From the NCBI GenBank assembly GCA_048937405.1, contig JBHLNF010000016.1:1-61214 (forward strand): DNA of 61,214 nucleotides, written 5' to 3'. The notes under the pieces are model-generated. The model made no database searches and was not told where the DNA came from. It saw nothing but the letters and a program-made list of their open reading frames with translations. Positions 7,863 to 44,468 of the stretch are shown piece after piece. Position 1 is the first letter of the stretch, and each line of letters begins with the position of its first letter. Source of the DNA: Promethearchaeota archaeon (GTDB lineage: Archaea > Asgardarchaeota > Lokiarchaeia > Sigyniarchaeales > SOKP01). The position numbers and the translations under genes were made by a program.

Positions 7863-10232
7863 TTATTTTAAAGCTACTTTACTTACCTGTGAGACTAAAT
7901 CAGCAAACTTTTTTCCTTCTGCAGCAGATATCCAGGCAATAACAAATCTTTCATCAGAAATATTATTTCTTTTCATCCAGCTTCTTATCCTTTTTTCTCG
8001 CTTTATAGCCCAATCATTTCCAGAAATATAATGACAATCTTGAGGATGGCATCCAGTCAACATAACAGCTCCAGCTCCACGATCAAAACAGTGTTTAATA
8101 AAAGATATTTTAACTCGTCCTGAACACATAGTTCTAACAATCCTAGTATTAGTTGGATATTGAATTCGACTTGTTCCCGCCAAATCCGCTCCTGCATATG
8201 AGCACCAATTACAAGCAAAAATCAAGACCTTCTTTGAGGCATTTTCATGGAGAGCAATATCTATTTGTCTAAGGATCATGGCATCTGTAAAATTTGTCAT
8301 AGTAATAGCATCTGTTGGACAATCTGCTGCACATGTCCCGCATCCCTTACATAATACAGGAATAATTCTTGCTGGTGTTTTCTTCTCTCGATCAACACTT
8401 ATGGCACCATAGGGACAACGAGATACACAAGTCCCACAACTAGTACATTTTTCTATATCTACAAATGCATATAAGGGCTCTACATGAAATTCTTCTTTTG
8501 CAATTAAATTTCCACAGCGTCCTGCTGCAGCACTTGCTTGAGTAACAGTTTCTCTGATATCTTTTGGTGATTCAGCACCTCCAGCAATGAATATACCATC
8601 TGTTGGAGTATCAACTGGTCGAAGTTTAGGATGCGCTTCAATATAAAAACCTTTAGGATCCTTAGCAATAGGAAATGGAATAGATTCTGAAGAACCTTGA
8701 ACACCTATAGAAAGAACTACTAAATCATATTCTTCAGATAGCATTGTTCCAGTGCTAATATTTTCAACATTGATAATAAGATTTTTATTGATGGGCTTTT
8801 CTTTAATCTGACCAGGACGTCCACGTATAAAAAGAATTCCTTCTTCTCTTGCTCTAGAGTATAATTCCTCAAATCCCTTACCAAAAGCTCTGATATCAAT
8901 AAAAAATATTGTAACCTCAACTTCAGGCCAATGTTCTTTAATTAAAAGACTATCCTTTATACTTTCCATACAACAGAAGTTAGAACAATATGGATTAAAT
9001 CTCTTATCACGTGATCCTACACAATTTATAAAAGCAACTTTTTTTGGTTTCTTAAGATCACTAGGACGTACGAGTTCTCCATTTGTAGGTCCTGCAGCAT
9101 TAATTAATCTCTCAAATTCAAAGGTTGTTATAACATTAGGATAATTACCCCATCCATATTCGGGAAGATTAGAGGCATCAAAAAGCTCAAACCCTACTGC
9201 GATAATAATGGCTCCTACTTTATATTTAAAAATTTTTTCAGAATCTTCATACACAATAGCTTCTTTTTCACATTCAGGAACGCATTTTCCACATGCTAAA
9301 GGAGAAAGACCTAAACAGTTTTTTTCATCAATTATATAGCTGGCAGGTACGGCTTGGGGATATGGGATATATATTGCTTTTCTCCAACCCAAGTTACCAG
9401 AATACTCATCAACAACGTTTTCAGGGCAAATAGCAACACAATCCCCACATGCAGTACAAAGGTTTTCATCAACATAACGAGGTTGTTTTTTTATAGTGAC
9501 TTCAAAATTACCAATATATCCAGATATTTCTGTAACTTCAGCACAGGAAATTAAATTAATATTTTCATGATTCCCTACATCTGCCATTTTTGGACCTAAA
9601 ATACAAATCGAACAATCCATTGTTGGAAAAGTTTTATCGATAAGAGCCATTTTTCCTCCAATTGTAGGTGATTTTTCGACAAGAATAACTTCATAATCGT
9701 CAGCTAGATCTAATGCAGCCTGAATTCCTGCTACACCTCCTCCAATGATTAAAACCCTTTGGGTAATTGGAACAACGATATCATCAATTGCTTCCAATAA
9801 TTCTGCTTTAGCAATTGCCATGTCAACAATTTCCTTAGCTTTTTTAGTCGCTTCTTCCTTCTCTGAAAGATGGATCCAACTACATTGTTCTCGGATATTA
9901 GCAACCTCCACCAGTGATGGATTTATTCCAACTCTTCTTAAAAGCGCTTTCCATGTTGGACCATGTAATCTCGGGGAACATGCAGCTACAACAATTTTCT
10001 CTACACCTTGCTCTTTAATAGCAGTTTCGATCTCTACTTGCCCTGGATCTGAGCAAGTATAAGTATTAACTTGAATTAGTTTGACTCTTGGATCATCTTC
10101 TAATTCTAGCGCTAATTGATCAATATCAACAGTTCCACCAATATTTTTTCCGCATTTACATAGGAAAACTCCAATCTTAGGTTCAATTTCCGTTTTATCA
10201 ATATTTTTTGTCTTATTTTCACTTTCAGTCAT
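7863..10232 (-). CDS. hdrA: Heterodisulfide reductase subunit A fused to MvhD
   Basis: GVFLCKCG, VVAACSPR, NIREQCSW, IGGGVAG, DKTFPTMDCSIC, CVGSRD, CSNFCC, ferredoxin motifs. C-terminal MvhD CNWCSYAGAD, MCSGRV, GCHPQDCHY, WISAAEG. Start placed at the ATG at 10232 after GAGTG. Confidence 0.92.
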   Translation of the reverse strand: MTESENKTKNIDKTEIEPKIGVFLCKCGKNIGGTVDIDQLALELEDDPRVKLIQVNTYTCSDPGQVEIETAIKEQGVEKIVVAACSPRLHGPTWKALLRRVGINPSLVEVANIREQCSWIHLSEKEEATKKAKEIVDMAIAKAELLEAIDDIVVPITQRVLIIGGGVAGIQAALDLADDYEVILVEKSPTIGGKMALIDKTFPTMDCSICILGPKMADVGNHENINLISCAEVTEISGYIGNFEVTIKKQPRYVDENLCTACGDCVAICPENVVDEYSGNLGWRKAIYIPYPQAVPASYIIDEKNCLGLSPLACGKCVPECEKEAIVYEDSEKIFKYKVGAIIIAVGFELFDASNLPEYGWGNYPNVITTFEFERLINAAGPTNGELVRPSDLKKPKKVAFINCVGSRDKRFNPYCSNFCCMESIKDSLLIKEHWPEVEVTIFFIDIRAFGKGFEELYSRAREEGILFIRGRPGQIKEKPINKNLIINVENISTGTMLSEEYDLVVLSIGVQGSSESIPFPIAKDPKGFYIEAHPKLRPVDTPTDGIFIAGGAESPKDIRETVTQASAAAGRCGNLIAKEEFHVEPLYAFVDIEKCTSCGTCVSRCPYGAISVDREKKTPARIIPVLCKGCGTCAADCPTDAITMTNFTDAMILRQIDIALHENASKKVLIFACNWCSYAGADLAGTSRIQYPTNTRIVRTMCSGRVKISFIKHCFDRGAGAVMLTGCHPQDCHYISGNDWAIKREKRIRSWMKRNNISDERFVIAWISAAEGKKFADLVSQVSKVALK

Positions 10233-10254
10233 AATTTCACTCACTTTCCTAATT

Positions 10255-11121
10255 TCATTTTGTAACTTTTTTATTTTGTGCATCAATACGAATTTGTTCT
10301 ATTCTTTTACTGAATCCTTTACGTTGTTCATTAACAAATTCCCCACATATTATAATACCTTCCTTGTAATCAAAAGTTGCTTGATGGGGGGGCCAATCAA
10401 CCTTAATTTTAATTTGTTTTTGTAACCATTGCAGCATTTCTATCGCATCACCTAATTTATTTTTGGATCCATATTGGACAAAACAAGGAGCTAAAACTTC
10501 TATAAAACTAAATCCTTCATTATCAATAGATTTAAAAATACTTTTCTGTAGTCTAAGGGTGTCATATCCAGGCCATCTTGCAACATATGTCGCACCTGCC
10601 GCTGCTGCTAGACTAACCAAATTAAAGGGAGGTTCCACATTTCCATAAGGTGTTGTAGCAGTAATATCACCAATCTGACTTGTAGGAGCTACTTGTCCTC
10701 CAGTCATTCCATATATATTATTATTTACACAGAGAACTGTAATTTCTATATTTCTCCTAGCAGCGTGAATGAAATGATTTCCACCAATCGCAAAAAGATC
10801 TCCATCTCCCGATAGAACTATGACCTTTAATTTTGGGTTAGCTAATTTTATACCAGTTGCAAAAGGTATAGCTCTCCCATGTGTTGTATGGAAAGCAGGT
10901 GCTTTAAAACAGCCACTAGATCGACCAGTACATCCTATGCCAGATACAATAGCATAATCTCTATATGTGAGACCCCTTTCTTTTAAACAACTTGTAATTG
11001 ATGTAATTACAGTTCCAATTAGGCAACCTGGACAAAAAATAAATCGATTTAATTTTAACATTTCACTTAGGGGATGACAAGCTGATTCAGGGGGAATTGA
11101 TATTTGATCTGATGGGGTTAT
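10255..11121 (-). CDS. korB: 2-oxoacid:ferredoxin oxidoreductase beta subunit; proposed ATA start at 11121 (first ATG at 11061)
   Basis: FCPGC, SGIGC, HTTHGRA, SGDGD, NNNIYGMTGGQ. The frame is open 20 codons upstream of the ATG and contains the HPL..L segment typical of KorB N-termini. Confidence 0.88.
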   Translation of the reverse strand: MTPSDQISIPPESACHPLSEMLKLNRFIFCPGCLIGTVITSITSCLKERGLTYRDYAIVSGIGCTGRSSGCFKAPAFHTTHGRAIPFATGIKLANPKLKVIVLSGDGDLFAIGGNHFIHAARRNIEITVLCVNNNIYGMTGGQVAPTSQIGDITATTPYGNVEPPFNLVSLAAAAGATYVARWPGYDTLRLQKSIFKSIDNEGFSFIEVLAPCFVQYGSKNKLGDAIEMLQWLQKQIKIKVDWPPHQATFDYKEGIIICGEFVNEQRKGFSKRIEQIRIDAQNKKVTK

Positions 11122-11124
11122 ATG

Positions 11125-12270
11125 TTACACCTCCTCCATTAACTTTTTATAAATAAATTTTGGACTAAAGGGTATGGTTGTTGGAATTGTAATTCCTGAA
11201 ACAGTAAACAAATGCCTAAATCTCTGAACTTCTCTAATTATCATTCCATTGTTCATTTCACACACAATAACTTTTGAAATTCCCATTTTCCCAATTCTTT
11301 CCATTAATTCATCAGGGAAAGGCCATAGCGTTTTTAATCGTACAAGACCCACTTTATGTCCTTCCTTTCGTACGCGCTCAACGACTTCTGGTATGCCTCT
11401 TGCGTTAATACCATATGCTAAAAGAATAACATCAGCATCATCCAAATATTTTTCCTCCCAATCATTAATATCTGGTCTTGCTTTTATAATCTTTTCACAG
11501 AGGCGTTTAATAAGAGTTTCTGCTGCTTCTGGGGTCATCTGTGGATTCCCTTCACTATCATGAGTTAATCCAGTAACATAAAAAGAATAATCTGTACCTG
11601 CCACTGCCATTCCGGGCACAAGATCATCATCAAGAATCTCAAAAGGTTTATATTCTTCGGGTGGAACTTGAGGCTTTTTACGTCCTATTATCTCAATATT
11701 TGAATGAATATTAACAACTTCCATCATTTGTCCAAGAATTCCATCTGAAGCTACAATTACAGGTACACGATATTTCTCAGATAGATTAAAAGCCCGAATA
11801 GTTAAATCATACATTTCTTGGACTGTAGCTGGTGCTAATACAATTATTTCATAATCACCATGAGACGCATATCTCGTTTGATATACATCAGATTGAGAGG
11901 CATTTGTCGGTTGACCAGTGCTAGGACCTCCTCTCATAATTGTAACGATAACTGTTGGTGCCTCTAACATCACACCTAAACCTATACTTTCAGCCATAAG
12001 TGAAAGTCCAGGTCCAGAAGTTGCTGTCATAGCTTTTTTTCCAGTGTAAGAGGCTCCAAAACAACTTGTAATAGATGCCAGTTCATCCTCCATTTGAACA
12101 AATGTACCATTAACTTCAGGTAGTCTTCTTGACATATATGCTGCAATTTCTGAGGATGGTGTAATAGGGTAACCGGCAAAATAACGACATCCTGCTGTAA
12201 TAGCACCTTCTGCTGAGGCATAATTCCCTGAAGTTAAAATTTTTCTTTCTTGGAAATCTGTTTTACTCAT
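11125..12270 (-). CDS. korA: 2-oxoacid:ferredoxin oxidoreductase alpha subunit
   Basis: GNYASAEGA, AGYPITPSSE, QMEDE, TATSGPG, RGGPSTGQPT, VTGLTHD. Confidence 0.92.
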   Translation of the reverse strand: MSKTDFQERKILTSGNYASAEGAITAGCRYFAGYPITPSSEIAAYMSRRLPEVNGTFVQMEDELASITSCFGASYTGKKAMTATSGPGLSLMAESIGLGVMLEAPTVIVTIMRGGPSTGQPTNASQSDVYQTRYASHGDYEIIVLAPATVQEMYDLTIRAFNLSEKYRVPVIVASDGILGQMMEVVNIHSNIEIIGRKKPQVPPEEYKPFEILDDDLVPGMAVAGTDYSFYVTGLTHDSEGNPQMTPEAAETLIKRLCEKIIKARPDINDWEEKYLDDADVILLAYGINARGIPEVVERVRKEGHKVGLVRLKTLWPFPDELMERIGKMGISKVIVCEMNNGMIIREVQRFRHLFTVSGITIPTTIPFSPKFIYKKLMEEV

Positions 12271-12550
12271 TGTTTATATCCTCTTTTATTTTCGTTTCTA
12301 TAATATATAAACTAACAGTTGGACATAACCGTTCACACTGTCGGCATCCTCCACACTCTTTAGAATTAACTACGATTGCATAGTGAAGCATGCGACTGTT
12401 GAATTTATCTTTACTTATTTCTATTAAATCTTTTGGACAGAATGCCAAACATAATTCACAACCATCACATTGCTCAGAATCTATTAATATCTCATAATTT
12501 TTCTCTTGTGAAGGAGGTGGTAAAATAGGTTTTCGTTTAGATTTTAACAT
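12263..12550 (-). CDS. korD: 2-oxoacid:ferredoxin oxidoreductase delta subunit (ferredoxin)
   Basis: CDGCELCLAFCP and CGGCRQCERLCP; overlaps the korA start. Confidence 0.85.
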   Translation of the reverse strand: MLKSKRKPILPPPSQEKNYEILIDSEQCDGCELCLAFCPKDLIEISKDKFNSRMLHYAIVVNSKECGGCRQCERLCPTVSLYIIETKIKEDINNE

Positions 12551-12742: not shown

Positions 12743-13312
12743 TTATGCTTTATTTATTATTTCTTGATAGAGCGCTTGTCCAATTTGATAAGCGTGTATA
12801 TTTATAGCTCTAAACTTTTTTGGCAAATTATTTAGGACTTGAGTAAAATAATCTTCTTTTAAATCAATTTTACCATTCTTTTTGAGATGTTGAGAAAGAA
12901 ATCCTAAAGTAACAATATTAGCACTCTTAGGTAAATTGCTTTCATCAGCTCGTCTTGTAATTGGTACACGGTGGATTTTACCTTCCTTGATAATATCCTC
13001 AGCATTTGCAATTGTATGCTCATCAATAAAGGAGAAGGTGTTTTCATATATACATTCAGCTGCACGTTCGAATCCATTTTGATCTATTGCGAAAAAAATA
13101 TCGGCATCTTTATCGCAAAAAGGATATGAAATAGGTTTAGAATCTAAAATTACATCACAAAAAATAGGACCACCTCTTACAGAAGGTGTATAGTCAACAG
13201 TAAGTGTAGCATAATAATTTCCTACCATTGCAACACGAACTAGTACACTTCCCAAAAATTTTATGCCTTGACCGCCTCTACCTGAAAATCTTATTTTTAA
13301 TTTATCGTTCAT
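12743..13312 (-). CDS. korC: 2-oxoacid:ferredoxin oxidoreductase gamma subunit
   Basis: IRFSGRGGQG, YTPSVRGG, ANIVTLG; directly upstream of korDAB. Confidence 0.85.
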   Translation of the reverse strand: MNDKLKIRFSGRGGQGIKFLGSVLVRVAMVGNYYATLTVDYTPSVRGGPIFCDVILDSKPISYPFCDKDADIFFAIDQNGFERAAECIYENTFSFIDEHTIANAEDIIKEGKIHRVPITRRADESNLPKSANIVTLGFLSQHLKKNGKIDLKEDYFTQVLNNLPKKFRAINIHAYQIGQALYQEIINKA

Positions 13313-43450: not shown

Positions 43451-43523
43451 TTTAATAAAATCTAATAATTAAGAAAATCTAGATTTAATATTCATTATGT
43501 AATTATAAGAGGTTGAAATAATA

Positions 43524-44468
43524 ATGGGAATGTTAGATGGAAAAGTTGCATTAATTACTGGGGCTGGACGAGGTGTAGGTCGTGAGGAAGCACTTGCAAT
43601 GGCAAAAGAGGGTTGCAACTTAGTAATTAATGATATTGGTGGAGGCTCCGATCATTTAACAAAGGATTCTAAAATTGCGGATAGTGTAGTTGAAGAATGC
43701 AAAAGCCTTGGAGTAAAAGCAATAGCAAACTATGACTCTGTTGTAGATTATAACAAAGCAAAAGCTATGTTAGAGCAAGCAATTTCTGAATTTGGGAAAT
43801 TAGATATTATTGTCAATAATGCTGGTATATTAAGGGATAGAATGATTTTCAATATGACAGAAGAAGAATTTGATGCTGTAATCGCAGTTCATTTAAAGGG
43901 AACCTTTAATCTTACTAAACATGCAGCAGTTTATTTCAGAACATTAGGAAAAGAAAACCCAAATTTAAAAAATTTTGGTAGAATTATAAATACCGCATCT
44001 GATTCTGGTCTATATGGTAATCCAGGTCAATCAAATTATGGTGCTGCCAAATCAGGTATTGCAACTTTCAGTGTTATAGTGTCAAGGGAACTTGCAAAAT
44101 ATGCAACTGTGAATTGCGTTGTACCGAGTGCCAGAACCCGTATGACTACAGATTTAACTCCTAAAATGACCGGATATATGAGTACAAAAACTAAAGATGG
44201 ATTTGATGTTTTTCACCCTTCACACTTTGCACCATTAGTTGTTTTTTTAGCATCTGATGCAGCCAGTAATATTAATGGAGAAATATTTAAAGCAATTGGA
44301 GATAAAGTATGGGTATATCGTGGTTGGCGGGCTGTAAAGAAAATTTCAAATAATTGGAAAACGTTTACACCCCAACAATTAGCTGAACGTGTTGAATCAG
44401 AATTAATGACAGATTTACCATCGAAAAGAGAAGGAGCAGCAACTAAAGAAGATTTATTTAATTTATAG
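43524..44468 (+). CDS. SDR oxidoreductase, MFE-2/HSD17B4-type (R)-3-hydroxyacyl-CoA dehydrogenase-like
   Basis: TGAGRGVG, VINDIGG, NNAGILRD, VHLKG, GRIINTAS, GQSNYGAAK. Confidence 0.88.
   Translation: MGMLDGKVALITGAGRGVGREEALAMAKEGCNLVINDIGGGSDHLTKDSKIADSVVEECKSLGVKAIANYDSVVDYNKAKAMLEQAISEFGKLDIIVNNAGILRDRMIFNMTEEEFDAVIAVHLKGTFNLTKHAAVYFRTLGKENPNLKNFGRIINTASDSGLYGNPGQSNYGAAKSGIATFSVIVSRELAKYATVNCVVPSARTRMTTDLTPKMTGYMSTKTKDGFDVFHPSHFAPLVVFLASDAASNINGEIFKAIGDKVWVYRGWRAVKKISNNWKTFTPQQLAERVESELMTDLPSKREGAATKEDLFNL

Follow-up and report, generated by a model that had tools for sequence, protein, structure and literature searches.

Background

Genetic code table 11 lists ATA, ATT, ATC and CTG as rare start codons, and two genes of Escherichia coli, infC and pcnB, begin with AUU. 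In eukaryotes, initiation at near-cognate codons is controlled by the stringency of eIF1 and eIF5, in a system that involves scanning and the Kozak context. Termination-reinitiation at close or overlapping stop/start pairs is known both in Haloferax volcanii and in E. coli. An ATT start is also described for ebpA of Enterococcus faecalis (PMC4447247), and ribosome profiling of Haloferax placed ~30% of the putative alternative initiation sites at near-cognate codons, which the authors of that study set aside (PMC7261190). Among Asgard archaea, a single "rare" ATT start has been proposed, on the basis of structure prediction, for the tubulin gene atubA of Kariarchaeaceae (PMC13394414); a literature search, whose coverage is incomplete and whose silence is therefore no proof of absence, returned no account of genome-wide use of near-cognate starts in Asgard archaea beyond this one remark on a single gene. 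Here we analyze the start of korB, the gene for the predicted thiamine pyrophosphate (TPP)-binding beta subunit of a four-subunit 2-oxoacid:ferredoxin oxidoreductase, in a stretch of 61,214 nucleotides (hereafter the window) from an uncultured Promethearchaeota archaeon of the Lokiarchaeia (assembly GCA_048937405.1, contig JBHLNF010000016.1). A first-pass annotation, made from the letters of the window, had proposed that this gene starts at ATA. Our comparisons make it very probable that translation of korB does start at the AUA at 11121-11119 (minus strand), directed by a Shine-Dalgarno (SD) sequence, and that it gives a beta subunit of 288 residues.

The arrangement at korB shares with the SD-led non-canonical starts of bacteria a near-cognate codon of the AUN type directly behind a good SD, a normal initiator tRNA as the presumed reader, and an annotation that picks a downstream ATG. 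It differs from them in that the bacterial cases are rare, gene-specific and usually regulatory (that of infC is conserved), whereas here an archaeon with eukaryote-like initiation factors appears to use such codons for about a quarter of its strongly SD-led starts; moreover, the korB ATA, which is not conserved, looks like a recent substitution and not like a conserved means of regulation. The codons involved (AUA, AUU, AUC, ACG and CUG) are the same set as in eukaryotic near-cognate initiation, and Asgard archaea carry the homologous factor aIF1, but the codon would be selected here by an SD at fixed spacing and not by scanning. As in coupled gene pairs, only 3 nt separate the upstream stop from the start, and the last codons of the upstream gene contain the SD, a layout that suits equimolar subunits; unlike in the coupled pairs that have been studied, coupling of korA and korB is suggested by geometry alone. 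Finally, as with atubA, a deposited Asgard protein is N-terminally short and an upstream near-cognate codon near a ribosome-binding site restores its conserved N-terminus (PMC13394414); korB differs in its codon (ATA), in the kind of evidence (an orthologous ATG and a confirmed base), in the genome-wide usage that accompanies it and in belonging to another Asgard family.

The korA-korB junction

On the minus strand the junction reads ATG GAG GAG GTG TAA, which is the end of korA, followed by CAT, by ATA (11121-11119) and by ACC CCA TCA. The elements discussed below are:

10255..11121, minus strand: korB as re-read here, 288 codons from ATA 11121 to the stop at 10257-10255, predicted TPP-binding beta subunit of a four-subunit 2-oxoacid:ferredoxin oxidoreductase
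11119..11121, minus strand: proposed AUA start codon of korB, with an orthologous ATG, a confirmed base and modal SD spacing
11128..11137, minus strand: SD sequence GGAGGAGGTG, core GGAGGTG at 11134-11128, within the last codons of korA
11125..11127, minus strand: korA stop codon TAA, in the same frame as korB and 3 nt 5' of ATA
11062..11118, minus strand: 19-codon extension TPSDQISIPPESACHPLSE, lost if the start is ATG 11061
11059..11061, minus strand: internal ATG, the start in the public annotation, with a 268-aa product

The core GGAGGTG ends 6 nt 5' of the ATA, and one TAA and one CAT are all that separates korA from korB, so that both genes lie in one reading frame. None of the 21 in-frame codons between the korA stop and the ATG at 11061-11059 is ATG, GTG or TTG, and upstream of this internal ATG, which lies inside an operon, there is neither an SD nor any other G-rich motif. 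The strong SD, the stop 3 nt upstream and the missing canonical codon had all been claimed by the first-pass annotation and are borne out; so is its remark that the GAGGTG+6 spacing recurs at porA, since a PorA-like gene of 409 aa follows the only GAGGTG-N6-ATG of the window (1260-1246, minus strand). The long form of KorB would read I-TPSDQISIPPESACHPLSE-M up to the internal Met and have (M)TPSDQISIPPESACHPLSEMLK as its N-terminal tryptic peptide, while the protein deposited for the 61214-base contig is exactly the 268-aa form.

The base call was examined in Logan k-mer contigs, which are built from the raw reads independently of the deposited assembly. Contigs of 219-236 bases that span the ATA site with zero differences were found in three sequencing runs (X1-X3), at 11027-11245 with depth 42.5, at 10992-11227 with depth 27.6 and at 11008-11234 with depth 12.6. 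Such agreement in three samples excludes an assembly slip: at depth 12-42 the codon is ATA and not ATG, and ATA dominates in the three samples with coverage of the site, although a minor ATG allele may exist in the population.

Orthologues of korB and the origin of its ATA codon

A protein search with the 288-aa reading of KorB against ~5.8 billion proteins returned Asgard (Promethearchaeota/Loki-type) proteins that are 85-90% identical to it over 100% of the query and 288 aa long, some of them with a longer C-terminus. These orthologues start M-[S/T/N/D]-PSDQISIPPE..HPL..ML.LNRFIFCPGC, and their initial Met aligns with the ATA-encoded Ile of the window. Among 37 orthologues, P18 and L19 of the extension hardly vary and most sequences have H at position 17, which agrees with the earlier suggestion that this segment corresponds to the HP..L stretch preceding the CPGC motif of many KorB proteins. 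KorB of the window retains all invariant columns of the family alignment, and its 19-codon extension is not a divergence outlier among 33 orthologues, a weak test on 19 codons only.

At the DNA level, 17 of the 19 same-genus orthologues carry AGGAGGT-TAA/TAG-NNN-ATG at the identical place. We then compared 59 non-identical junctions, taken from genomes of the genus, from metagenome contigs and from contigs of GTDB species, with identical junctions collapsed. The start codon is ATG in 53 of them, aligned codon for codon with the ATA of the window, TTG in three, ACG in one and ATA in two, namely the window and one further junction (L059) in which ATA is followed at once by ATG. The ACG comes from the deposited sequence of isolate H2M.194 (L015/L152, JBHLPN010000009.1), with the same SD and a TAG stop. 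The sequence (A)GGAGGT is kept at this place in all close orthologues, and a TAA or TAG stop is kept there, or abuts the ATG, in all close orthologues listed. None of the orthologues inspected at the DNA level starts at MLKLNR. Three database proteins (P0023, P0084 and P0041) are short forms called from the internal Met, and the 90% clusters to which they belong also hold full-length members of 287-294 aa. Because ATA occurs at korB in this species only, we regard it as derived from an ancestral ATG by a recent, species-specific G>A substitution.

Asgard-type korB genes that are close to this one (68-90% identity) were also found on contigs that bear bacterial names (Nanopelagicaceae, Deltaproteobacteria, Desulfobacterales), i.e. 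L139 (DATKTW010000167.1), L166 (CP070652.1), L173 and L177. This suggests either mis-binning or lateral transfer.

Near-cognate codons behind SD sequences in the genome

We scanned the whole assembly, a metagenome-assembled genome of 4.47 Mb in 29 contigs. An SD is present in only about 1/10 of the genes; SD-led genes show a G-rich peak at -12 to -7, with GGAGG+8-10, GAGGT+7 and AGGTG+5-10 as modal spacers. The ATA of korB lies at GGAGG+8, GAGGT+7 and AGGTG+6, in each case within the peak of ATG genes. A second scan collected "orphan" SD sites, i.e. strong SD 6-mers without a canonical start after which a frame opening at spacing 6-12 stays open for 100 codons or more, with an in-frame stop just upstream. 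It yielded about 40 sites, the majority of which have ATT, ATA or ATC at spacing 8-10. At spacing 8-9 one of these three codons is present in 25 of 31 orphan SD sites vs 5 of 30 sites for three clean control motif sets (a further set, ctrl2, consists of GGTGA-like words, is not clean and was kept out of the latter count), and the background of these codons at spacing 9 over all SD sites is ~8%. The difference between orphan and control sites indicates that the combination of SD and ATA at korB is more than chance. We made no use of the number of SD sites "explained by a canonical start", since control motifs give an equal share and most of these matches are due to chance.

When each strongly SD-led start is counted once, there are 107 canonical starts (ATG 80, TTG 19, GTG 8) and 37 near-cognate ones (ATT 18, ATA 11, ATC 6, CTG 1, ACG 1), a near-cognate share of 26% under the criteria used. 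Elsewhere in the window, a short-chain dehydrogenase-like gene (43521-44468, plus strand) has ATA right before ATG, 8 nt past GAGGT, and either codon could be its start.

Conservation of near-cognate starts in the genus

Several genes of this genome have a Pfam domain whose beginning lies ahead of the first canonical codon and need a near-cognate start to keep it intact. An ETF-alpha protein with an N-terminal 4Fe-4S ferredoxin domain (L113:101-1291) has an apparent CTG start behind AGGTGA; Fer4 is found at residues 2-24, and the first canonical codon is 101 codons down, inside the ETF domain. A PPAT-like nucleotidyltransferase (L117:101-541) starts with ATT and has its domain at 8-145, with the next canonical codon 50 down, inside the domain. 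Further examples are Usp (ATC, domain 2-157), NifU/IscU (ATA, domain 2-123), Rpp14 (ATA, domain 8-104) and an M28 peptidase (ATA, next canonical codon 131 down). Among ribosomal proteins, uS4 begins IGDPRR at ATA and uL15 begins ITRKYPRK at ATT. The gene for aIF1/SUI1 (L131; C29:22004-22219, minus strand), whose product proofreads start codons, contains no ATG in its 107-codon frame: ATT is the third codon past the stop, and the first canonical codon is a TTG at codon 23, inside the protein.

These starts are shared with related genomes to different degrees. The ATT of the PPAT-like gene is present in 24 of 24 genus genomes (L272-L295), down to 58% protein identity and often with a stop directly in front, and that of uL15, behind AGGTGA+6, in 19 of 30. 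For IscU the genus has ATT in 12 genomes, ATA in 10 and ATG in 2 (ATT or ATA in 22 of 25), and for a RagA/Arf-like GTPase ATA in 9, ATT in 8, ATC in 2 and ACG in 1, plus some forms with ATG. The gene for uS4 (L125:101-601; C28:552393-552896, plus strand) resembles korB: its ATA, behind AGGTGA+6 and read from the assembly only, is confined to this genome, and all 29 congeners compared (L212-L241) have ATG. Because ATT and ATA are conserved across genes of the genus, we take AUA and AUU to be long-standing functional starts that interchange with each other and with AUG, korB being a fresh instance. More generally, the choice of start codon is probably relaxed across this Lokiarchaeial genus: AUA, AUU and AUC, and rarely ACG or CUG, would be ordinary starts behind a strong SD, would serve about 1/4 of strongly SD-led genes, including those for ribosomal proteins, IscU and aIF1, and would interchange freely with AUG over short evolutionary times, with korB and uS4 as fresh examples of AUG>AUA.

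A model for initiation at korB

The frequency of ATA and ATT starts behind an SD in the genome and in the genus makes it very probable that the korB ATA is the true start, as the first-pass annotation had concluded. The small ribosomal subunit would be placed by pairing with GGAGGTG in the last korA codons, 6 nt 5' of the AUA. An ordinary initiator tRNA with the anticodon CAU would then read AUA with a third-position mismatch, so that the first residue would be Met. Ribosomes that end korA at the TAA 3 nt upstream probably raise the local supply of ribosomes, which could make a weak start codon tolerable. The geometry of korA stop, SD and start is that of a coupled pair and is the same in congeners; judged by this geometry only, termination-reinitiation coupling may add to the efficiency of korB. 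The change from ATG to ATA would have been tolerated as, behind a strong SD, the genus accepts AUA, AUU and AUC and, less often, ACG or CUG. The data show the DNA sequence, the orthology of the codon, the spacing of the SD and the use of such starts across genome and genus; use of AUA in korB, insertion of Met and help from coupling are what we infer.

An initiator-type tRNA, located by a hand-written pattern, is encoded on the minus strand of contig C3 (index 10368 of the reverse complement). Three G-C pairs flank its CAU anticodon, an intron follows position 37, and the anticodon arm is GGGCTCATA. No initiator-like tRNA with another anticodon was found in the assembly when anticodon stems were scanned with a pattern, a crude method that could have missed one. 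ARAGORN reported only 7-14 tRNAs in the whole assembly and no tRNA-Met; this low number suggests that the majority of its tRNAs probably contain introns or are atypical in another way.

The KorB protein and its operon

KorB contains the TPP-binding domain PF02775 (TPP_enzyme_C; E 2.2e-33, residues 73-210), and its residues C31, C34, C65 and C214, invariant in 38 aligned sequences, are presumably the ligands of a [4Fe-4S] cluster. Residues 27-242 align with the solved beta subunit 8ys5_C (E 3.5e-60), and FCPGC of KorB aligns with WCPGC of 5b46_B; these two chains and 6n2n_B combine, as does KorB, a TPP-binding fold with an N-terminal CxGC motif. The segment before the Cys motif comprises 10 residues in 5b46_B, 15 in 8ys5_C and 23 in 6n2n_B, compared with 28 in the long form of KorB and 8 in the short form. 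As its length varies among the solved chains, structure alone cannot decide the start of korB. The best NCBIfam match of KorB is PRK09628 (2-oxoglutarate ferredoxin oxidoreductase beta), with 240.7 bits vs a cut-off of 364; a score below the cut-off means that the name korB denotes only the type of subunit and does not fix 2-oxoglutarate as the substrate.

The korA, korD and korC genes are encoded directly upstream of korB on the same strand, in the order korC, korD, korA, korB:

11125..12270, minus strand: korA, alpha subunit, 381 aa; POR_N and PFOR_II, NCBIfam PRK08659 with 485 bits, above the cut-off of 411
12263..12550, minus strand: korD, ferredoxin-like delta subunit, 95 aa; Fer4 dicluster domains, best matches OGOR_delta / OorD below their cut-offs
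12743..13312, minus strand: korC, gamma subunit, 189 aa; Pfam POR, E 2e-21

The 3' side of korB is adjoined by a gene for an 807-aa HdrA-like flavoprotein (7863-10286, minus strand), a protein that carries several Fer4 domains and, at its C-terminus, an MvhD/FlpD domain; the longest ORF of this gene overlaps the end of korB. The oxidoreductase may be coupled to an electron module of the heterodisulfide-reductase type.

Alternative explanations

The alternative that deserves most attention is that the change from ATG to ATA destroyed the start, and that KorB is made from ATG 11061 as a 268-residue protein without the conserved N-terminal segment, either alone or beside weak initiation at AUA. 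ATG 11061 is the first canonical codon, the deposited protein is the 268-aa form, orthologues widely share a Met at this internal position, and ATA at korB is unique to this species; furthermore, the beta chain of the Sulfolobus 2-oxoacid:ferredoxin oxidoreductase has only 10 residues before WCPGC, which makes a short KorB structurally possible. We nevertheless consider this unlikely, because 11061 has no SD or G-rich stretch upstream even though it lies inside an operon, while the ATA has kept a well-placed strong SD, the segment that would be lost includes the nearly invariant P18 and L19, and that segment shows no stops, no frameshifts and, by a weak test, no excess divergence; besides, the same layout of SD and ATA serves essential genes in the genome and in the genus. 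Decay of korB, with the loss of the start as the first step of pseudogenization and no functional KorB from this locus, would agree with a start codon lost relative to all close relatives and with the presence of other 2-oxoacid oxidoreductase beta paralogues in this genome (six matches). It is quite improbable in view of an intact 288-codon frame with all invariant residues and 89-90% identity to orthologues, of an ATA allele that dominates in three samples and of the intact korA, korC and korD around it.

For ATA to be an error of sequencing or assembly, with ATG the true codon of the organism, one G>A difference in a metagenome-assembled genome of 29 contigs would suffice, and the same species-specific pattern in uS4 could be a hint of a systematic artefact. 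Against this stand the independent k-mer contigs of the three runs, and the conserved ATT and ATA starts in ~30 other assemblies of the genus, which cannot all be errors; we therefore regard an error as highly improbable. It is more improbable still, to the point of being negligible, that the TAA of korA is read through, or that korA and korB are effectively fused, and that korB needs no start of its own. Indeed the two genes share a frame that is interrupted by no more than TAA-CAT, but this follows simply from the spacing of SD, stop and start, and all three elements are conserved at the junction in all close orthologues; read with table 11, the ORFs of the window have normal ends and give no sign of stop-codon reassignment, and no search was aimed at longer fused homologues.

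Several points weigh against initiation at AUA itself. The support for it is a comparison of DNA sequences, and a codon found at korB in this species only might be a slightly deleterious or null start mutation. A short form that keeps 8 residues before FCPGC, vs 10 in the beta subunit of Sulfolobus tokodaii, might still work, and the weak test for relaxed constraint places the window among the non-outliers. Runs X1-X3 are three sediment samples of one study, and the run with depth 42.5 is probably the source sample; run X4, from another study, covers 11071-11138 hardly at all. Two patterns did not locate a 16S rRNA 3' end in the assembly, and for the anti-SD sequence of this organism we assume what is generally known.

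Implications

By these comparisons korB very probably has an additional SD-led near-cognate start, and what is new is the species-specific ATA at korB and at uS4. The public annotation of KorB is very probably 20 residues too short, and, since gene finders accept no starts other than ATG, GTG and TTG, the same truncation would affect dozens of genes in each genome. The case of korB suggests that the ATG start of a subunit of a central-metabolism enzyme can become ATA and still dominate in three covering samples, and the assembly shows the same change, likewise confined to this species, for the essential ribosomal protein uS4. Together with the ATT and ATA starts conserved in the genus, the two changes point to unusually tolerant recognition of start codons in close archaeal relatives of eukaryotes that possess initiation factors of the eukaryotic type. 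korB offers a concrete and testable case, in which a single peptide would be decisive. If our reading is true, the present Asgard proteomes contain systematic truncations at genes of this kind, and close archaeal relatives of eukaryotes would initiate translation at a stringency unlike that of any well-studied prokaryote.

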